Below, one piece after another: positions 30,101 to 50,812 of a DNA stretch of 64,000 bases. Numbering within the stretch: position 1 is the stretch's first letter; each line of letters begins with the position of its first letter. Under the pieces are notes generated by a model. The model ran no database searches. It was given only the letters and a program-made list of their open reading frames with translations, and was not told where the DNA came from. Position numbers and translations under genes: made by a program. Source of the stretch: Escherichia coli (lineage in GTDB: Bacteria; Pseudomonadota; Gammaproteobacteria; Enterobacterales; Enterobacteriaceae); NCBI RefSeq assembly GCF_041886205.1, contig NZ_CP169029.1. The stretch is one strand, 5' to 3'.

Positions 30101-31198
30101 ATGGCGTACTATAACATAGAGAAACGACTAAAATCCGATGGCACACCACGCTATCGCTGTAATGTGATTATCAAAGAAAAAGGTGTTATCACTTACAGGG
30201 AAAGCAAAACATTCCCTAAACATGCTCATGCCAAAACATGGGGCACACAGAAAGTGATGGAATTAGATCTATATGGCATTCCATCATCAAATGCAGTTGA
30301 CGGACTTACAGTCCGTGACTTACTACACAAATATTTAAATGACCCAAATGCCGGAGGTAAAGCAGGCCGTACTAAAAGATATGTGCTAGAACTGCTTATG
30401 GATAGTGACATCTCCGCGATCAAACTATCTGAACTGACAGAAAATGACGTAATTGAACATTGCAGGCTAAGAAACAACGCTGGCGCAGGTCCAGCAACAG
30501 TCAGCCACGATGTTAGTTATCTTGGTAGTGTTCTGGATGCGGCCAAACCTGTATACGGAATTAATTACACATCAAACCCGGCGAAAAGTGCTCGTCCATA
30601 TCTACTTAAACTTGGTTTGATTGGTAAATCAAACCGTCGTAATCGTAGACCAGCATCTGATGAACTGGACATGCTCATTGAAGGCCTTCAACAACGATCT
30701 ACTCATAAATGCTCAAAAATTCCGTTCGTTGATATCCTCAAATTTTCTGTGTGGTCCTGTATGCGAATCGGAGAAGTATGCCGGTTACGATGGGAAGATC
30801 TCGACCAGGAACAAAAATCTATACTCGTAAGAGACAGGAAAGATCCACGCAAAAAGGAAGGCAACCACATGAAAGTAGCCTTGCTTGGGGAAGCCTGGGA
30901 TATCGTCCAACGACAGCCCCAAAAATCGGAATTCATTTTTCCATATAACAGCACTTCTGTTACTGCGGGATTTCAGAGAGTAAGAAGCAAATTAGGTATT
31001 AAGGATCTGCGATACCATGATTTGCGTAGAGAAGGGGCAAGTCGCTTATTTGAGGCTGGTTTTAGTATTGAGGAAGTCGCCCAGGTTACAGGGCATCGTT
31101 CATTAAACGTGCTATGGCAGGTATATACCGAACTGTATCCGAAATCTTTACATAATCGTTTTGAAGAGCTCCAAAGGAGCAGAAATAAGATCCCTTGA
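30101..31198 (+). CDS. int: Tyrosine site-specific integrase (dusA-targeting type)
   Basis: 365-aa ORF with C-terminal catalytic region (HDLRREGASR ... LWQVYTELY); first phage gene next to the dusA 5' end. Confidence 0.8.
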   Translation: MAYYNIEKRLKSDGTPRYRCNVIIKEKGVITYRESKTFPKHAHAKTWGTQKVMELDLYGIPSSNAVDGLTVRDLLHKYLNDPNAGGKAGRTKRYVLELLMDSDISAIKLSELTENDVIEHCRLRNNAGAGPATVSHDVSYLGSVLDAAKPVYGINYTSNPAKSARPYLLKLGLIGKSNRRNRRPASDELDMLIEGLQQRSTHKCSKIPFVDILKFSVWSCMRIGEVCRLRWEDLDQEQKSILVRDRKDPRKKEGNHMKVALLGEAWDIVQRQPQKSEFIFPYNSTSVTAGFQRVRSKLGIKDLRYHDLRREGASRLFEAGFSIEEVAQVTGHRSLNVLWQVYTELYPKSLHNRFEELQRSRNKIP

Positions 31199-31200
31199 CA

Positions 31201-31244
31201 CTGTTTATCCATACAGTTAAAAATAATACTGTATACAAACACAG
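31201..31244. promoter_or_regulatory. Two tandem LexA (SOS) boxes upstream of the dinI-like gene
   Basis: ctgtttatccatacag (31201-31216) and ctgtatacaaacacag (31229-31244), both CTGT-N8-ACAG; a TTGACA hexamer sits at 31195-31200. Confidence 0.7.
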
Positions 31245-31259
31245 TATAGAGGGACTTTT

Positions 31260-31508
31260 ATGCGTATTGAAATCTGCATAGCCAAAGAAAAAATGACTAA
31301 AATGCCAACCGGTGCTGTGGATGCGTTAAAGGAAGAATTAACCCGACGCATCAGTAAGCGTTATGACGATGTAGAGGTGATCGTAAAAGCCACCAGCAAC
31401 GATGGGCTTTCAGTTACACCTACTGCAGATAAAGATTCAGCTAAAACTTTTGTGCAGGAAACTCTGAAAGATACCTGGGAGTCTGCTGACGAGTGGTTTG
31501 TTCACTAA
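31260..31508 (+). CDS. DinI-family protein (82 aa)
   Basis: [31 protein letters not shown]...[16 protein letters not shown] resembles DinI (MRIEV..., C-terminal ETWESADDWFV). Confidence 0.75.
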
Positions 31509-31511
31509 TTA

Positions 31512-31570
31512 GCACTATCGGAAGTTCACCAGCCAACCGCAGCACGTTTTTGCATACAACGTGCCTGCGG
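31512..31570. repeat. Repeat copy R1 (about 60 bp, hairpin plus T-run; acts as dinI-like terminator)
   Basis: gcactatcggaagttcaccagccaaccgcagcacgtttttgcatacaacgtgcctgcgg followed by ttttt; about 90% identical to 34181-34240. Confidence 0.7.
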
Positions 31571-31731
31571 TTTTTCGAGACTATTCTGACCGTCATACTT
31601 ACACATCAACTTAGCGCCCATCCAGAGAAATTATCTTTTTTGCATTCCGAAGATTCAAAGAGTTAGCCTAATTTTCCAGATAGTTTTCTCGACAAATCTG
31701 AGGTATTTTGGTTATCGATATAGTGCTTTGG

Positions 31732-32788
31732 GGCTTTGTTGAATAAATCAGATTTCGGGTAAGTCTCCCCCGTAGCGGGTTGTGTTTTCAGGCAATACGC
31801 ACGCTTTCAGGCATACCTGCTTTCGTCATTTTGTTCAGCGCTCGTACCAGGGCCATAGCCTCTGCAACCTGACCATCGTAGTCACGCAGCGTCAGTGAAC
31901 CCCCGAACAGCTGTTTTACCCGGTACATCGCCGTTTCCGCTATCGAGCGACGGTTGTAATCTGTTGTCCATTTCCACCGCGCATTACTCCCGGTCATTCG
32001 CTGATTAGCCACTGCACGGTTACGGTCTGCATATTCACCGGGCCAGTAACCCGCACCTTTTCGGGGAGGGATAAGCGCGCTGATTTTCTTACGCCGCAGT
32101 TCATCGTGACATAGCCGGGTATCGTAAGCGCCATCGGCGGCGGCTGACCTGATTTTCCGGTGGGTTTGCCGGATTAACCCGGGGAAGGCCTCTGAGTCCG
32201 TAACGTTGTTCAGCGACAGGTCAGCGCAGATGATTTCATGTGTTTTACTGTCAACGGCGAGATGCAGCTTACGCCAGATACGGCGGCGTTCCTGGCCATG
32301 CTTTTTGACTTTCCACTCGCCTTCACCGAAGACCTTCAGCCCGGTGGAATCAATTACCAGGTGTGCGATTTCACCCCGGGTGGGCGTTTTGAAACTGACA
32401 TTAACCGACTTTGCCCGCCTGCTGACACAGCTGTAATCCGGGCAGCGTAGCGGAACGTTCATCAGAGAAAAAATGGAATCAATAAAGCCCTGCGCAGCGC
32501 GCAGGGTCAGCCTGAATACGCGTTTAATGACCAGCACAGTCGTGATGGCAAGGTCAGAATAGCGCTGAGGTCTGCCTCGTGAAGAAGGTGTTGCTGACTC
32601 ATACCAGGCCTGAATAGCTTCATCATCCAGCCAGAAAGTTATGGAGCCACGGTTGATGAGGGCTTTATTGTAGGTGGGCCAGTTGGTGATTTTGAACTTT
32701 TGCTTTGCCACGGAACGGTCTGCGTTGTCGGGAAGATACGTGATCTGATCCTTCAACTCAGCAAAAGTTCGATTTATTCAACAAAGCC
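31732..32788. mobile_element. IS903-group insertion sequence (IS5 family), 1057 bp, apparently intact
   Basis: 18-bp terminal inverted repeats ggctttgttgaataaatc (31732-31749) and gatttattcaacaaagcc (32771-32788); flanked by 9-bp direct target duplication gtgctttgg (31723-31731 and 32789-32797). Confidence 0.9.
31788..32756 (-). CDS. IS903-group DDE transposase
   Basis: 322-aa ORF filling the IS; motif DSTGLKVFGEGEWKVKKHG typical of IS903/IS102 transposases; true start may be internal. Confidence 0.85.
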   Translation of the reverse strand: MKDQITYLPDNADRSVAKQKFKITNWPTYNKALINRGSITFWLDDEAIQAWYESATPSSRGRPQRYSDLAITTVLVIKRVFRLTLRAAQGFIDSIFSLMNVPLRCPDYSCVSRRAKSVNVSFKTPTRGEIAHLVIDSTGLKVFGEGEWKVKKHGQERRRIWRKLHLAVDSKTHEIICADLSLNNVTDSEAFPGLIRQTHRKIRSAAADGAYDTRLCHDELRRKKISALIPPRKGAGYWPGEYADRNRAVANQRMTGSNARWKWTTDYNRRSIAETAMYRVKQLFGGSLTLRDYDGQVAEAMALVRALNKMTKAGMPESVRIA

Positions 32789-32843
32789 GTGCTTTGGCTG
32801 AGGAACAGCATTAAATTCAACCATTTTATTCATAGGGATTAAA

Positions 32844-33848
32844 ATGCAAGATACAGACGTTTACGTATACATAGGCGATGTTCACCGCTCTGGTCATCAC
32901 GACATCACCAAAGCGATTAAAGAAAGAAAAACTAACCATGGTTTACAAAAAAATGTTCTTTTTTGCGTCGCTACCTATGGCGGTGATCCCAGCGCAGGAT
33001 ATAGAATTGGCCGCGCTTTGCAACACAACTATGAACACATCACCGTTCTAGTTGTTGGCCCTTGCAAAAGTGCTGGAACCTTGATGGCTGTCGCCGCTCA
33101 TAAGCTCGTGATTGGTGATATGGGTGAGCTTGGTCCTCTAGACATCCAACTTAAGAAAAATGATGAGATCGGCGAATTGAGCTCGGGCCTTGTTATCGCA
33201 ACGGCGATTGATGAAATAAAAGAGTGCGCTATTTCGACCTTTAGATCATACGTACTTGATATAAAGTACAGAAACCAAATTAGCACGAAGATGTCTGCAG
33301 ATATTGCTGCTAAGCTTACTGAAGCAATCATATCGCCGATGGCCTCACAGATAGACCCCATCAAACTCGGGGAGCATCAACGAGCAATGAACATAGCGCT
33401 TTCCTATGGGGAGCGTTTGAATAGTCACTCGAAAAATCTTAAGGAAAGCTCCTTAGGCAAGTTGATCGCTGGATATCCAGCCCATGGTTTTGTGATAGAC
33501 CGTAAAGAGGCGAGGGAACTATTCAACCATGTTGAGAGTCCTACAGACTTTGCAGCCAACCTGTACGAAGTTCTTGGTGAGATGATTTCGTCAGGCGAAA
33601 TCTCTATCTTCGACAAACCGGTGATTAAAGATTTAACTCCTAAAAAACAATATGAAACAACTAACGCAGAGGAAGATTCCCATGACAACAGCAGAATTCA
33701 GGAAGGAGATGAAATCTCTGACCAAAATTCAGGAAGAGCAGAACCGCCAAGGGATGAACCTGTCCAGGGAAGCGATGGAAAACATGCGGAAATTGAAGAA
33801 GAGGCTGGAACCTTACCAGCAGAGCAACCAGATGAAGGCACTCAGTGA
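32844..33848 (+). CDS. Orphan ClpP/crotonase-fold serine peptidase-like protein (S49/SDH-like) with acidic low-complexity C-terminal tail
   Basis: 334-aa AT-rich ORF with SD (aggga) 8 bp upstream; core ...VATYGGDPSAGYRIGRAL...VVGPCKSAGTLMAVAAHKLVIGDMGELGPLD resembles Clp-fold peptidases; last ~70 aa rich in E/D/Q; family assignment from memory only. Confidence 0.55.
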   Translation: MQDTDVYVYIGDVHRSGHHDITKAIKERKTNHGLQKNVLFCVATYGGDPSAGYRIGRALQHNYEHITVLVVGPCKSAGTLMAVAAHKLVIGDMGELGPLDIQLKKNDEIGELSSGLVIATAIDEIKECAISTFRSYVLDIKYRNQISTKMSADIAAKLTEAIISPMASQIDPIKLGEHQRAMNIALSYGERLNSHSKNLKESSLGKLIAGYPAHGFVIDRKEARELFNHVESPTDFAANLYEVLGEMISSGEISIFDKPVIKDLTPKKQYETTNAEEDSHDNSRIQEGDEISDQNSGRAEPPRDEPVQGSDGKHAEIEEEAGTLPAEQPDEGTQ

Positions 33849-33869
33849 ATATTGTAGTTTCTGATTGAG

Positions 33870-33901
33870 GACCTCGGCTACTACGCCGGGGTCTCTTTTT
33901 A
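33870..33901 (+). terminator. Intrinsic terminator after the peptidase gene
   Basis: gacctcggc-tactac-gccggggtc hairpin followed by tctttttaca. Confidence 0.6.
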
Positions 33902-34180
33902 CATCACTGGGCAGTCATCAAACTCCGCATTCCTAGCATCGTGATGATGTACGTGATTGCTCCGAATATTGAGTGTGAGTAATTGTAGCCACCACCATCA
34001 TCTGGCAGTGCTTCCGTTCTCCAGATTTATCAGGTGGGACTAAGGATGAGTACGATATCGCTTAATCCTGAAACTCCATTTCAGACAGGGACCCTATTAC
34101 AGACCGAAAGACCACAGATAAGTAGTTTGTTCATAAATTAATGCGTAGAATCAATAACGGCTGGAAATCATTCAATACTC

Positions 34181-34240
34181 GCACTATCGAAAGTTCGCCA
34201 GCCAGCCGCAGCACGTTCTTGCATACGACGTGGCTGCGGC
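34181..34240. repeat. Repeat copy R2 (about 60 bp) next to the invertase 3' end
   Basis: gcactatcgaaagttcgccagccagccgcagcacgttcttgcatacgacgtggctgcgg; 54/60 identical to R1; contains 13-bp stem agccgcagcacgt / acgtg(g)ctgcggct. Confidence 0.7.
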
Positions 34241-34280
34241 TTCCAACATTAGACAAATAACTCTTTAAATTGCTTTTAAA

Positions 34281-34844
34281 TTATTTCGTTTGAATGCCAG
34301 TAACAGGAAATCGTTTATATAGGGTTGATAGCCCAACGTTATAGATACGTGCAACATAACGCCGTGATTTCCCTGCCGCTATGAGCGCTCCCATCTGTTG
34401 CCACTGCTCGTCGCTAAACTTCGGTCTACGCCCACCAATCCGGCCTTTGGATCTGGCAATAGCCAAACCAGCTAAAGTTCGCTCGCTATTCAAATCAGAT
34501 TCATACTGCGCAGCAGAAAGAATATTACGGAAATTATAGCGACCACTTGCTGTTTTCAGGTCTACACCATCTGTAATACTCCGAAAATTAACGCCTTTTT
34601 CGTGCAGATTTTGAAACATCAATAGCGCATGTAGCACATTTCTCCCTATCCGATCTAGCTTCCAGACAATCAACTCATCTCCACTTTTCATCACCGAAAT
34701 TAATTCCTTTAACACAGGGCGATTAGCTGTTCTGCCACTGGCATATTCTTCATAAATTCGCTCACAGCCAGCTGACTCAAGTGCAAGACGTTGCAACTCT
34801 GTATCCTGATGATTTGTTGATACACGAACATACCCGTAAATCAT
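34281..34844 (-). CDS. Serine DNA invertase (Pin/Gin/Hin/Cin family)
   Basis: N-terminus MIYGYVRVSTNHQDTELQ with catalytic Ser, resolvase domain, C-terminal HTH (GLSTLYKRF); adjacent to invertible tail-fibre segment. Confidence 0.9.
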   Translation of the reverse strand: MIYGYVRVSTNHQDTELQRLALESAGCERIYEEYASGRTANRPVLKELISVMKSGDELIVWKLDRIGRNVLHALLMFQNLHEKGVNFRSITDGVDLKTASGRYNFRNILSAAQYESDLNSERTLAGLAIARSKGRIGGRRPKFSDEQWQQMGALIAAGKSRRYVARIYNVGLSTLYKRFPVTGIQTK

Positions 34845-34903
34845 GAGTGCTTCTCCTGTTGTAAAAACAGGAGAAGAGGCGAAATATCACCTGATTCAGA
34901 AAA

Positions 34904-34929
34904 ATATTTGAAAGGTTGGTTTGGGAGAA
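34904..34929. promoter_or_regulatory. Left crossover site of the invertible tail-fibre segment
   Basis: Contains ttggtttgggagaag (34916-34930), inverted copy of cttctcccaaaccaa at 36813-36827; half-site resembles gix half TTATCCAAAACC. Confidence 0.65.
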
Positions 34930-35415
34930 GGCTCAGCGTTACCCGTTGGTGTGCCTGTTCCGTGGCCTTCAGCCACACCACCAACAGGCTGGCTGAAATG
35001 CAACGGTGCACCTTTTTCTGCCGAAGAGTACCCAAAACTGGCAAAGGCTTACCCAAAGTTAAAATTACCGGATTTGCGCGGTGAGTTTATTCGCGGGTGG
35101 GATGATGGGCGAGGTGTTGATTCCGCGAGACTGCTGCTTTCAAGTCAGGCAGCATCTATCCTTGAACATAACCATGAAATGCATGGATGGACAGGGAACC
35201 CACTCATGGCTAGAGATGTTGGTGAATTAGGTACATCATCCGTATTTGCGGTGCAGTTGAGCATTGGCGATGGCGGGTTATTGTATTCGTGGAAGGATGG
35301 GAGTGGAACAACAAATGACAGTAAACGAATGGATAGAACAAATCATGTCAGTTCCGGCGCCGGTGATGGTAGCCCGCGAAACATTGCATTTAACTACATT
35401 GTGAGGGCTGCATAA
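34921..35415 (+). CDS. Alternative (currently unexpressed) tail-fibre C-terminal variable domain
   Basis: Frame opens exactly at the left crossover site with no ATG (ORF-track M is TTG); encodes tail-collar-like receptor-binding domain. Confidence 0.7.
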   Translation: MGEGSALPVGVPVPWPSATPPTGWLKCNGAPFSAEEYPKLAKAYPKLKLPDLRGEFIRGWDDGRGVDSARLLLSSQAASILEHNHEMHGWTGNPLMARDVGELGTSSVFAVQLSIGDGGLLYSWKDGSGTTNDSKRMDRTNHVSSGAGDGSPRNIAFNYIVRAA

Positions 35416-36018
35416 ATGGAACAGGCTATTTTGGGAAAAGACGGTTACGCTTTAAATGATGGGGAAATCATCGTACATAACTATGATGGCGAAACGCGGG
35501 AATATATTTCTACATCAACTGAATATCTCGCTGTCGGAGTCGGTATCCCGGCATGTTCCTGTCTGGATGCACCAGGTACACATAAAGCTGGTTATGCAAT
35601 CTGTCGCTCTGTAGATTTAAATTCATGGGAATATGTGCCAGACCATCGCGGTGAAACGGTCTATAGCACCAAAACAGGAGAATCAAAAGAAATCACCGCT
35701 CCGGGTGATTACCCTGAAAATACAACCACTATCGCCCCATTAACGCCATACGATAAATGGGATGGTGAGAAATGGGTGACCGATACTGAGGCACAGCATA
35801 GCGCCGCAGTAGACGCGGCAGAAGCACAGCGCCAGTCACTGATTGATGCTGCAATGGCTTCCATTAGTCTGATTCAACTGAAATTGCAGGCCGGACGTAA
35901 ACTGACGCAGGCAGAAACAACCAGACTTAACGCTGTGCTGGATTACATTGACGCGGTGACGGCAACAGATACCAGCACCGCGCCGGATGTCATCTGGCCT
36001 GAACTGCCGGAGGCGTAG
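35416..36018 (+). CDS. Tail-fibre assembly chaperone (Tfa) for the alternative fibre
   Basis: 200 aa with conserved Tfa C-terminus LNAVLDYIDAVTATDTSTAPDVIWPELP. Confidence 0.75.
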   Translation: MEQAILGKDGYALNDGEIIVHNYDGETREYISTSTEYLAVGVGIPACSCLDAPGTHKAGYAICRSVDLNSWEYVPDHRGETVYSTKTGESKEITAPGDYPENTTTIAPLTPYDKWDGEKWVTDTEAQHSAAVDAAEAQRQSLIDAAMASISLIQLKLQAGRKLTQAETTRLNAVLDYIDAVTATDTSTAPDVIWPELPEA

Positions 36019-36442
36019 GCCATTCAATATCTGGCGCACTGGAGGTATCAACCAGCTCCAGTGCATCCAGATAATCCAGCCACAAATTATATTGCGCCAG
36101 TTCCTCACCTTTCAGACGACCAATAGCGGCTTTACCGGGCCATTGCTTACTGTTCATGTATTCGTTGGCCTGGTTAATTAGTAGCTGTCTTTCTGATTCA
36201 GTAATTTCAATAAGCTCTTCATGCGTGGGTGGAGGAATATCTGCCCACGCAGGCAGCCCATCATCTCCGGCAATACGGATTTTTCCTTGTGGCGGTTCAG
36301 CCATAAACTCACTGATAATATTTTGATTTACTTCCTTAGCGTCTGATAAATCCCATCCCTCTGATTTATATTTATCAATCATATCCACAGGGAAAAAAGC
36401 ATTATGCCTTGCGCTATAAACATATTCGTTCATATAAATCAC
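35990..36442 (-). CDS. Tail-fibre assembly chaperone (Tfa) for the currently expressed fibre
   Basis: 150 aa, C-terminus LWLDYLDALELVDTSSAPDIEWPTPP; converges on the other tfa. Confidence 0.75.
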   Translation of the reverse strand: MIYMNEYVYSARHNAFFPVDMIDKYKSEGWDLSDAKEVNQNIISEFMAEPPQGKIRIAGDDGLPAWADIPPPTHEELIEITESERQLLINQANEYMNSKQWPGKAAIGRLKGEELAQYNLWLDYLDALELVDTSSAPDIEWPTPPAVQAR

Positions 36443-36453
36443 CCTGAATAAAA

Positions 36454-37116
36454 TTACTCACCAACAGCCCACCAACTGTAATTCATCGATACCGTGTCGC
36501 TGGTTGATGACGTTCTGTAAGCAGAATTAAAGCCGGTTAACGTTGGGCCTTCTGCAGTCATCACGAACCCTCGCCCAGCGCCTAAAGGCGCACCGCCATC
36601 ACCAGAATGAGTAAGCATGGCGCAGTCCGCTTTTTTGGGGAAAGGGATGCTGAATGTAATTCTCATTGTTTGCGTCGATAATGTCGGCGTAACCGCACCA
36701 CGACCATATTGCAGGATTTTCCCGTTGGGTAATTTCATCCATCCATCACCACTGGCAAAAGAGGCCATGTCCGGTATCTGATTTTCCCCTGTCCCCACAT
36801 CCCGTTTTGCCGCTTCTCCCAAACCAAGGTTTTCGAGAGCCGTTTTCACCGTGCCATCCGATTTGATATCGCCAAACGGATTCTTGCGGCTTAACAGCAG
36901 CGCACGAAGCGCGGTAAGCAGCTGGTCATGCCGCCCCTTCTCCAGGCTGGCACCGGATGCCTCCACCACGCTGCAAAGTTCCTCCTGCAACATGTCAAAG
37001 TAGTCATCATCCAGATCGGTGGCAGGCGTGCCGGTCTGGGGGTTACCACGGGTAAAACCGTTCTTACCCGCGCCGAACTTATCCTTCTGCGCGGTTTTCG
37101 TGTCTATACGATGCAT
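36454..37116 (-). CDS. Tail-fibre protein (constant N-terminus fused to the currently selected variable C-terminus)
   Basis: Conserved N-terminus [47 protein letters not shown]; crossover site falls at ...[10 protein letters not shown]. Confidence 0.8.
36814..36839. promoter_or_regulatory. Right crossover site of the invertible segment (inside the tail-fibre gene)
   Basis: ttctcccaaacc-aa-ggttttcgagag, near-perfect dyad; inverted relative to left site. Confidence 0.65.
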
Positions 37117-48954: not shown

Positions 48955-50184
48955 TCAACCACCAACGCTACCTTTCCCCACCAGCGCTTTAATGGCAGAG
49001 GTGTCTTCCAGGATACAGTCAAAACGATGGAAGGCCAGAAAACCGGTCTGATCATATTCCGCGTAACGCTCAACCAGACGTTTAAGAATCATGTATCGCA
49101 CACGACGGATAATGAAGCGATCAAAGTCACCACAGAACATGAATTTTTTACCCGCCCCGATATCATCAATTTCCTGATCAATGACATACGGTACATTCAA
49201 CACTGAAGCAGGGGCCACACCAACAATATCCGGCAACCATAAAGGGCGTCCCTGACCGTCTTCCATCTCACTGATCAGTTTCAGCGTATTATCGTTAAAC
49301 GCCAGGCGGAATTTCGGTCCGCGACGATATGCAGGATCAATGCTGTGTTTCAGAGCCAGAATTTCCTGCCACTTCACAGCATTTGCCGCGGCAGTCTGTG
49401 TTGTGCCGGTCACTGATGCTGCCAGCCCTTTGGGTTGTTTAGGCGTACCAGCACCCGTCCCCTGAATCAGATAACGGGCTTCACCACGACCAATACGTTC
49501 AGCAATGCGACGGGCAAGATAAGCTTCCATATCGATCGCGCTGTCCTGCAGCAACTCATTAGACACACGAATTATTTTCGATGTCATTTTGAGCGCCCCA
49601 AGGCTTCCCATACCGAAATCGGTGTCTTCTTCACCGGCTTCTTCATTTTCGCCCAGCAGAACACCAACTTCGGAAGTACCATCAGCTGTTGCCCACTCCA
49701 TAGTGCGACCGTCAGAAGTGGTAAGAATCTGCGCCACACTGGCGATGCCACCGTAGGATTTCATCTTCTCAACAACTTTCGCCAGGAATGTTTCTGGTAC
49801 GGTATATCCACCCTTTTCATCCTGAGCTACGCCCTGGGCACGAAGTTCACGCAACGCCTTTCGTTCTTCTGATGTCAGCTCACTGGCACCGTGACGCATC
49901 CACTTATCAAAAACCTGAGCTCGTTTCTCATCCTGTTGTGGATTGTTTTCCGGATCAAGATTCTGACGCTGCTCTTCCTCATTGCTTTCAATGTACGCCT
50001 GATCCTGACGACGTAGTTCTTCTTCGCGAGCAATTCGTTCATCAAGCGCTTCCAGTTCGGATTTTGCTTTGTTCCACTCAGTGCGCTGCTCTTCCGTCCA
50101 TGCGTTATCACCAATTTTTTCATTCAGGGCGCGCATGTCAGTTGCGATAGTATTACGTTTCTGTTTCAGTTCATGCAGTTTCAT
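48955..50184 (-). CDS. Major capsid protein, HK97 fold, with N-terminal coiled-coil delta domain
   Basis: 409 aa; N-terminal ~100 aa coiled coil then capsid core; preceded by prohead protease. Confidence 0.8.
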   Translation of the reverse strand: MKLHELKQKRNTIATDMRALNEKIGDNAWTEEQRTEWNKAKSELEALDERIAREEELRRQDQAYIESNEEEQRQNLDPENNPQQDEKRAQVFDKWMRHGASELTSEERKALRELRAQGVAQDEKGGYTVPETFLAKVVEKMKSYGGIASVAQILTTSDGRTMEWATADGTSEVGVLLGENEEAGEEDTDFGMGSLGALKMTSKIIRVSNELLQDSAIDMEAYLARRIAERIGRGEARYLIQGTGAGTPKQPKGLAASVTGTTQTAAANAVKWQEILALKHSIDPAYRRGPKFRLAFNDNTLKLISEMEDGQGRPLWLPDIVGVAPASVLNVPYVIDQEIDDIGAGKKFMFCGDFDRFIIRRVRYMILKRLVERYAEYDQTGFLAFHRFDCILEDTSAIKALVGKGSVGG

Positions 50185-50194
50185 GATGTTTCCT

Positions 50195-50812
50195 TTACGC
50201 GTTAAGAAGGGTCAGGACGCGTTCACGCGCCATACGTTGATTAATGGCTTTCTGTAGCGCGCCGCTGTTGCGCGCCTCCTGCCATGCTTTCATGGAGCGA
50301 ACAGCCGAGTCAGCCTCCTGATAGGCAGGATATGTCACAGGACTGACATCCAGCAGACGGGAAAAGCGGGTTATCTCGCGAATAACAACCCCGTCCTCAT
50401 CCTGATACCACTCCTCGCCGTCACGGGCGACACGGAAAGCAAAAGATGACTGGTTAATATCTCCACGTTGCATCGGGGCCAGCACCAGATCACGAATGGT
50501 CTGTGTCTCCGGAGCCTGGATGTCATAGCGCAATCCGCGCTCATCAACTGAAAGATTCAGCGTGCCTGCTGCACTACGCCCAAGAATAAAATTAGGATCG
50601 TGGTTAAACAGTGCGCGTACATCATCACCAAGCACATCGTCAAAAGCGCCGGGCCGGATGATTTCGCGGAATGAACCGAATATCAGCTCAGAACGACAGT
50701 CAAACACCGATCCATAACCGATAATGTGCGCCGGGTTATCGTCATGCCGCTCAGCACGCACCTCACCGCTGTAACAACGGATTTCACGGTCATTCATTGG
50801 TTTTTCCCTCAT
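50195..50812 (-). CDS. HK97-family prohead protease
   Basis: 205 aa; ...AHIIGYGSVFDCRSELIFGSFREIIRPGAFDD...; between portal and capsid. Confidence 0.75.
   Translation of the reverse strand: MREKPMNDREIRCYSGEVRAERHDDNPAHIIGYGSVFDCRSELIFGSFREIIRPGAFDDVLGDDVRALFNHDPNFILGRSAAGTLNLSVDERGLRYDIQAPETQTIRDLVLAPMQRGDINQSSFAFRVARDGEEWYQDEDGVVIREITRFSRLLDVSPVTYPAYQEADSAVRSMKAWQEARNSGALQKAINQRMARERVLTLLNA

Follow-up and report, generated by a model that had tools for sequence, protein, structure and literature searches.

Protease-based immunity against phages is an active theme, with Lit, the trypsin-like activators and the CapP-type regulators as examples. Lit, the product of an accessory gene of prophage e14, is a zinc metalloprotease whose target is EF-Tu and whose trigger is the Gol peptide of phage T4. 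Here we describe a protease gene found in a 64,000-nucleotide stretch of Escherichia coli DNA (contig NZ_CP169029.1 of assembly GCF_041886205.1), to which we refer as the window. The gene belongs to a prophage integrated at dusA and encodes a 334-residue ClpP-fold serine protease of the SDH family. Our literature search found no stand-alone ClpP-fold protease shown to defend against phage, and neither a paper on the function of the SDH family (PF01972) nor any experimental function for this parent family.

The intervals in which phages carry such cargo are well described. The cI-N interval of lambdoid prophages is a mosaic hotspot that holds rexAB and bstA, both expressed with the repressor (PMC8585504), and the gpA-gpQ interval of P2-like phages is a hotspot of anti-phage genes (PMC9122126). 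Homologues of the window gene recur in these two prophage hotspots documented for anti-phage genes. They share with RexAB of phage lambda and BstA of Salmonella phage BTP1 the slot 3′ of the repressor, on the same strand and with a terminator after it (cI-N in E. coli), but there is no kinship in sequence or fold, and the window copy itself lies between dinI and pin, outside this slot. The window protein is related to none of RexAB, BstA, Old/Tin and Lit, and by analogy it may work like these items of hotspot cargo.

A preliminary description of the gene, made from the DNA sequence alone, proposed it as an undescribed abortive-infection or defence gene by analogy with Lit. Both proteases are indeed encoded by prophage accessory genes near a prophage end, in e14-like elements (pin, ymfQ-type tail). 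The analogy holds as a functional idea; it does not extend to fold or catalytic class, because one enzyme is a metalloprotease and the other a ClpP-fold serine protease, so that the likeness is conceptual. ImmA/IrrE proteases (COG2856) are likewise encoded beside phage or integrative element (ICE) repressors, but they have another catalytic class and fold, and the SDH gene is not tied to one repressor type and often has no repressor nearby at all.

A divergent SDH protease with an invariant candidate triad

The open reading frame is a genuine gene, far beyond chance. Its limits and strand had been given exactly in the preliminary description, as had the presence of a Shine-Dalgarno-like sequence and a terminator-like hairpin of its own (Table 1). 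Compared with homologues, the gene evolves with a dN/dS of 0.07 overall and of 0.025 in the core, and its coding sequence is identical to that of a copy without the insertion sequence (IS) in E. coli GXU-23-25-310, with no decay. Relatives are numerous: 2850 are found at E ≤ 1e-3 in a 90%-clustered protein collection, and a profile search of 1.84 billion representatives yields 5562 matches and 1366 clusters (50% identity) at E ≤ 1e-30. The family occurs in Proteobacteria, Chlorobi, Cyanobacteria, Chloroflexi, Acidobacteria and Planctomycetes. In RefSeq the gene is called "SDH family Clp fold serine proteinase", and in older records 'SppA protein'. The family is annotated already (PF01972, RefSeq) and only its function is undescribed, so that the earlier claim of novelty stands for the function alone.

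The protein matches the Pfam family PF01972 ('ClpP-like SDH-type serine proteinase') with an E-value of 9.4e-6, and the match is partial, spanning model positions 93-162 (70 of 286). All 32 of the 32 aligned homologues match this family at E ≤ 0.001 (best 1.9e-11). The score against NCBIfam NF047768 is 35.9 bits (E 5.2e-9, residues 20-106 only), below the curated equivalog cutoff of 250, which makes the protein a divergent relative of the SDH proteases. It has in common with PF01972/NF047768 the ClpP/crotonase fold, the nucleophile motif and the Ser-Asp-His order. It represents a distinct divergent PF01972 subfamily of ~330 residues, marked by an insertion of three helices (residues 116-196) and by a tail that is disordered.

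The protein has a ClpP-type (ClpP/crotonase) fold, as the preliminary description had predicted. The AlphaFold2 model is confident for the core, which extends to about residue 265; disorder is predicted for residues 103-114 and 270-334, with a pLDDT of less than 50 from residue 270 on. Among viral structure models, the nearest carry the annotation 'serine dehydrogenase proteinase'.

The putative nucleophile resides in the motif GPCKSAGT, where it had been placed before. In 32 diverse homologues (down to 40% identity), Cys74, Lys75, Ser76, Gly78 and Thr79 of this motif are invariant and Ala77 is nearly so. Two other segments are also invariant: Gly94-Gln102 (GELGPLDIQ), which holds Asp100, and Y211-P212-x-H214-x-x-VIDR-x-EA. 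The candidate triad is formed by Ser76, Asp100 and His214, which are unchanged across the 32 homologues and follow each other in the order Ser, Asp, His. An hhalign comparison puts Ser76 on the ClpP nucleophile ('AASMG'), although against a single ClpP sequence only the N-terminal half is aligned and the probability is low. Since the alignment covers just this half, the other two residues were placed by eye: Asp100 falls at the position of the ClpP His and His214 at that of the ClpP Asp. The Ser-Asp-His order appears to be the swapped triad that gives the SDH family its name. The conservation pattern points to an intact, invariant candidate Ser-Asp-His triad under purifying selection.

Apart from the swapped triad, the protein differs from ClpP (MEROPS S14) in that the handle region is replaced by ~90 predicted helical residues (three long helices within residues 116-196). 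The match to the ClpP family PF00574 is not significant (E 0.031). No Clp or other AAA+ ATPase gene is adjacent to the SDH gene in the loci examined, although use of a host unfoldase is possible. The likeness to SppA and the S49 family is confined to the fold: the SDH protein has no sequence likeness to SppA, and a sequence search of all PDB chains, SppA included, gave no match at E ≤ 10. Furthermore, SppA uses a Ser-Lys dyad whereas the window family conserves Ser, Asp and His, and the invariant Lys75 beside the nucleophile does not seem to occupy the position of the SppA general base. Unlike SppA, the protein also lacks a membrane anchor and a signal peptide. Its maximum KD19 hydropathy is 1.59, there is no hydrophobic segment beyond one core β-strand, and no signal peptide is evident by eye. 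The protein is therefore probably cytoplasmic.

The C-terminal tail is 71 residues long and contains 20 Asp/Glu versus 6 Lys/Arg (net charge -14) and 6 Gln, in agreement with the ~70-residue acidic tail noted earlier. Of 120 homologues, 118 have a tail of 20 residues or more, and 74 have one with a net charge of -5 or lower. An acidic tail as a defining feature of the family was considered and rejected: it is a majority tendency only.

Homologues in repressor-adjacent and P2-like slots

About 110 homologue loci were examined; neighbours were clustered over ±4 genes at ~80 of them, and markers were scored at 77 species-representative loci. In an E. coli lambdoid prophage the order is cII, cro, then cI, SDH, N, then cIII, kil, gam, bet and exo, i.e. 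the protease gene occupies exactly the position of rexAB. A comparable arrangement is found in Klebsiella Rac-like prophages, in which an HTH-only repressor gene (without the S24 domain) is followed by SDH, in a Morganella prophage (cI, then SDH) and in a Bartonella prophage, where an HTH-S24 gene is followed by SDH across a 78-bp gap. A terminator-like hairpin is found 3′ of SDH, and in three of these four loci there is none between the repressor gene and SDH; the Morganella locus has a possible hairpin between cI and SDH. Because SDH follows the repressor in the lambdoid, Rac-like and Bartonella prophages on the same strand, with no terminator in between and one right after, the two are probably made together in lysogens.

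Sister E. coli lambdoid prophages (H35, H36), which have the same cI 3′ end and N flank as locus L009 (7600-9600), carry HigB/HigA and a hypothetical gene in the cI-N slot in place of the protease gene. The cI genes that precede identical SDH proteins can be aligned over only 154 of ~234 residues, and SDH proteins that are 73% identical follow unrelated repressors.

Phage records with the gene are rare (2 of 50,697). In Klebsiella phage ST13-OXA48phi12.4, the neighbours of SDH are DinI and an ImmA/Xre pair. The second record is the P2-like Burkholderia phage vB_HM387 (OR990504.1; loci L109 and L114), in which SDH lies in the gpA-gpQ interval, with primase/integrase on one side and a toxin-antitoxin pair and portal on the other; the protease homologue, the integrase and the toxin-antitoxin pair of this phage make up a compact accessory island at the cos-proximal hotspot. 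In metagenomic prophages, SDH is an opposite-strand moron between replication and lysis genes, and in one locus (L111) it is convergent with an intact S24 repressor gene. ImmA/Xre pairs neighbour SDH in seven loci.

An S24/HTH repressor or an ImmA/Xre pair is found nearby in 19 of the 77 species-representative loci, and either of these or an integrase in 25. The proportion depends on the distance from the window protein: a repressor, ImmA/Xre or integrase marker is present in 12 of 23 loci at ≥45% identity and in 13 of 54 below 45%. A conserved operon partner was sought among the clustered neighbours; repressor and ImmA/Xre modules are the only recurrent ones, and each is present at a minority of the loci. 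The gene is found in a head-morphogenesis operon in none of the ~110 loci. A check of homologue context, suggested in the preliminary description, therefore comes out in its favour: close relatives occupy repressor-adjacent or gpA-gpQ hotspots or stand beside ImmA/Xre pairs, and homologues are never found in head operons.

An optional cassette and an IS element in front of it

The gene order around the protease is qor-pspG-dusA, integrase, dinI-like gene, IS903-type element, protease gene, terminator, a spacer of ~430 bp, Pin-type invertase and tail-fibre genes. The location between integrase and invertase had been recognized correctly; the dinI-like gene and the IS903-type element, which also lie between them, had not been mentioned. 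The protease gene is part of a ~2.6-kb insertion between the dinI-like gene and the Pin-type invertase. In E. coli TUM9754, whose prophage is the closest one that lacks the gene (98.5% identity over 25 kb), dinI and pin are 143 bp apart. On either side of the cassette stands a direct repeat made up of the dinI 3′ end and a 62-nt segment (Table 1), and from the right repeat onward the window lines up with the dinI-pin junction of the prophage without the cassette. These two observations, the absence from the TUM9754 prophage and the bracketing repeats, make the protease gene optional, exchangeable prophage cargo (a 'moron'), as the preliminary description had it. The repeats suggest an exchange of cargo between prophages, and the cassette probably entered by recombination between the dinI genes of two prophages. 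At its attR end, the TUM9754 prophage has other genes by the dusA fragment (locus L107, 41869-42912, beyond the window), namely one for a Panacea-domain protein and a hypothetical gene, possibly a toxin-antitoxin-like cargo pair.

The gene had been called much more AT-rich than its flanks, which is true with respect to the baseplate genes (GC content 0.447 versus 0.578), but the integrase (0.425), dinI (0.430) and pin (0.436) genes are equally AT-rich.

Within E. coli the gene is patchy. Twenty of 5426 complete genomes have the window-type gene and 17 the lambdoid type. The int-dinI-SDH module is found on a different, lambda-like tail backbone in GXU-23-25-310 and at prfC in avian pathogenic E. 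coli (APEC) O78. In the latter genome, RefSeq annotates an 'S24 family peptidase' pseudogene fragment 3′ of the protease gene and convergent with it (locus L001, 9385-9558); tblastn and the S24 profile found no S24 similarity in window positions 33849-34280, and we do not rely on this annotation.

Between the IS element and the ATG lie 55 bp (46 bp if counted from the end of the target duplication), so that the element stands between the protease gene and its native 5′ region. None of the 20 complete E. coli genomes with the protease gene contains the element, and their matches to the window begin only at position 32789. We take the element to be a member of the IS903 group on account of its length, its terminal repeats and the 9-bp duplication. 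With the 5′ region detached, the window copy may be poorly expressed. It is possible, though we lean against it, that this copy is a silenced passenger, uncoupled from its promoter by the insertion and perhaps selected in this state because expression is costly, a scenario that concerns the window copy only and is compatible with any function of the protease. In its favour, the insertion is clean, with an intact 9-bp duplication close to the start codon, it has occurred in none of the other 20 E. coli genomes, the transposase gene is oriented away from the protease gene, and a promoter scan found no promoter-like site between the IS end and the ATG. However, the coding sequence is identical to that of the IS-free GXU-23-25-310 copy and shows no decay, insertion sequences can create outward or hybrid promoters, and no promoter can be predicted in the native upstream region either.

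Proposed function and competing explanations

An anti-phage role is our best guess for the protease, offered tentatively and rated somewhat short of an even chance. The idea of defence is better grounded than before owing to the hotspot positions of the homologues. Lysogens would produce the protease along with the repressor, as they do RexAB and BstA, and it would act in the cytoplasm without a dedicated ATPase. Upon infection, cleavage of a protein of the incoming phage or of a host protein would result in exclusion of the superinfecting phage or in abortive infection. The C-terminal tail, which is disordered, could keep the enzyme latent or could be processed by the enzyme itself, as are the C-termini of SppA (4kwb). 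In the window, the cassette has probably recombined in between dinI and pin, and the IS903-type insertion has cut off the native 5′ region. In its full form, the proposal is that the SDH subfamily constitutes a single-gene anti-phage system of a new kind. A latent cytoplasmic protease that needs no ATP would be expressed from the repressor operon, restrained by its tail (or processing it) and unleashed by infection, and its gene would move between the rexAB/bstA slot, the P2-like old/tin slot and integrase-proximal cassettes. Taken as a whole, this chain of suppositions is conceivable but doubtful.

A number of observations weigh against defence. The hotspot position is circumstantial, as toxin-antitoxin, virulence and regulatory genes are carried in such slots too, and the window copy is not next to a repressor but lies between dinI and pin at the integrase end. 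Two thirds of the species-representative loci have no phage or immunity marker within 8 kb, and the same-strand neighbours sampled from these marker-free loci are mostly housekeeping genes (aroC, pheS, dnaE, ribokinase, aminotransferase and ABC transporters). The PADLOC-DB v2.0.0 models give no family at E ≤ 1 with the protein, and the literature search found no paper linking the SDH family to defence. No sigma-70 consensus promoter was found in the native, IS-free upstream region. The tail sequence drifts almost neutrally (dN/dS 0.8-1.3), which bears on the role given to the tail.

Published surveys were also consulted. The supplementary tables of the P2/P4 hotspot paper contain no entry for an SDH, Clp or S49 protease, and the only peptidases named in a defence screen of the E. 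coli pangenome are an Xre-peptidase fusion and one of the ImmA/IrrE type. GiPD474, a defence protein of Gifsy, is described as holding an ATPase domain and is not a protease of the SDH kind.

The strongest functional competitor is a general accessory peptidase with no part in phage conflict, i.e. an ATP-independent cytoplasmic enzyme for peptide turnover, stress proteolysis or a host trait, which in some prophages would serve as a fitness moron. This is unlikely, if by no means negligible. Its weight comes from the distant members of the family, most of which are orphan single genes embedded among housekeeping neighbours, so that a defence role of the whole family is not implied; the low share of mobile-element or immunity markers below 45% identity (13 of 54 loci) is in line with it. 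The family is also large and broad (the 1366 clusters mentioned above), has a uniform architecture and lacks a conserved partner gene. Yet about half of the species loci at ≥45% identity (12 of 23) are tied to a mobile element or an immunity module, and all of the Enterobacterales, Morganella and Bartonella examples examined are in prophages, in the repressor-adjacent slot. The patchy occurrence in E. coli (<1% of genomes) is typical of conflict cargo and not of a physiological function, and single-gene defence systems, too, are often inserted as orphans among housekeeping genes.

A role in the lysis-lysogeny switch appears improbable. Here, the target of the protease would be the neighbouring repressor, in the way that ImmA acts on ImmR, or the fragments left by RecA-stimulated self-cleavage of the repressor, which the protease would clear; in either case it would tune induction. 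SDH does recur right beside repressor genes, on the same strand and with no terminator in between, as well as beside ImmA/Xre pairs and, in L111, convergent with an S24 repressor gene; moreover, the Klebsiella repressors have no S24 domain and might need a protease in trans. There is also a precedent: according to a preprint, induction is completed only if the CI fragments undergo Clp proteolysis, with host ClpXP acting in S. aureus (bioRxiv 10.1101/2022.09.18.507959). Against a dedicated repressor partner, however, the same SDH protein accompanies cI genes that are alike over 154 of ~234 residues only, and similar SDH proteins accompany S24, HTH-only or ImmR/ImmA repressors. Many copies, including that of the window, have no adjacent intact repressor, and next to ImmA a second protease would be superfluous. 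The sister prophages with HigBA in the slot indicate that the switch works without the protease.

A prohead (head-maturation or scaffold) protease of this phage, or a leftover of another head module, is hardly credible and is rejected on genomic context: the weak profile likeness to ClpP-related head maturation proteases (NF045542, E 1e-6, 28.7 bits versus a cutoff of 120; phrog_1684 and phrog_53) and a 35-residue 'capsid protein' fragment annotated by RefSeq downstream of the gene in one genome are outweighed by the prophage's own HK97 prohead protease beside portal and capsid (also seen in the TUM9754 prophage), by the absence of the gene from the portal-protease-capsid block in every locus examined, by its usual transcription with, or location beside, the lysogeny repressor gene and by the best PHROG match, phrog_21683, which has unknown function and lies outside the head category. 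That the gene is dispensable for head maturation, and that a separate prohead protease exists, had both been stated correctly in the preliminary description.

A positive phage challenge would add a compact single-gene system to protease-based immunity and would give the SDH family its first biological function. The absence of an anti-phage effect would point to control of the prophage switch or to host physiology.

Features of the surrounding prophage

The features of the locus and of the prophage head module that bear on the comparison are listed in Table 1.

Table 1. Coordinates of the protease gene, its signals and neighbouring features in the window
Feature	Position	Strand	Remarks
Tyrosine integrase gene of the prophage	30101-31198	+	next to dusA (attL side)
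Two LexA-box-like sites before the dinI-like gene	31201-31216 and 31229-31244		CTGT-N8-ACAG
dinI-like gene	31260-31508	+	upstream neighbour
Left cassette repeat	31492-31573	+	dinI 3′ end and 62-nt hairpin-containing segment
Left 9-bp target-site duplication of the IS	31723-31731		GTGCTTTGG; uninterrupted sequence present in locus L002
IS5-family (IS903-group) element	31732-32788	-	1057 bp; 33-nt imperfect terminal inverted repeats
IS transposase open reading frame	31788-32756	-	points away from protease gene
Right 9-bp target-site duplication of the IS	32789-32797		GTGCTTTGG; ends 46 bp upstream of ATG
Shine-Dalgarno-like AGGGA	32834-32838	+	5 nt before ATG; read from sequence
SDH-type ClpP-fold serine protease gene	32844-33848	+	334 residues, ATG start; core = residues 1-265
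Intrinsic-terminator-like hairpin	33869-33901	+	10-bp stem, 7 GC, then T-run (hairpin with CTTTTT at 33869-33894); 21 nt past stop codon
Right cassette repeat	34121-34242	+	degenerate dinI 3′ end (34121-34140, 85%) and 62-nt segment (34181-34242, 89%)
Pin/Gin-type serine invertase gene	34281-34844	-	downstream neighbour; controls tail-fibre segment
Major capsid gene	48955-50184		beside prohead protease
HK97-family prohead protease gene of the prophage	50195-50812	-	TIGR01543, 97.5 bits versus cutoff 59

The two LexA-box-like sites are the only ones in the 64-kb window, in which 0.69 would be expected by chance; the scan found no LexA box directly upstream of the protease gene. Their location in front of dinI suggests that this dinI-like moron is probably SOS-regulated. 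DinI is also listed among the gene arrangements in the supplementary tables of the P2/P4 hotspot paper (PMC9122126).

Downstream of the cassette (window positions 34281-37116), the Pin-type invertase gene stands beside two overlapping, convergent open reading frames for tail-fibre assembly (35416-36018 on the + strand and 35990-36442 on the - strand). This layout is that of an invertible host-range switch of the type found in e14, Mu and P1.

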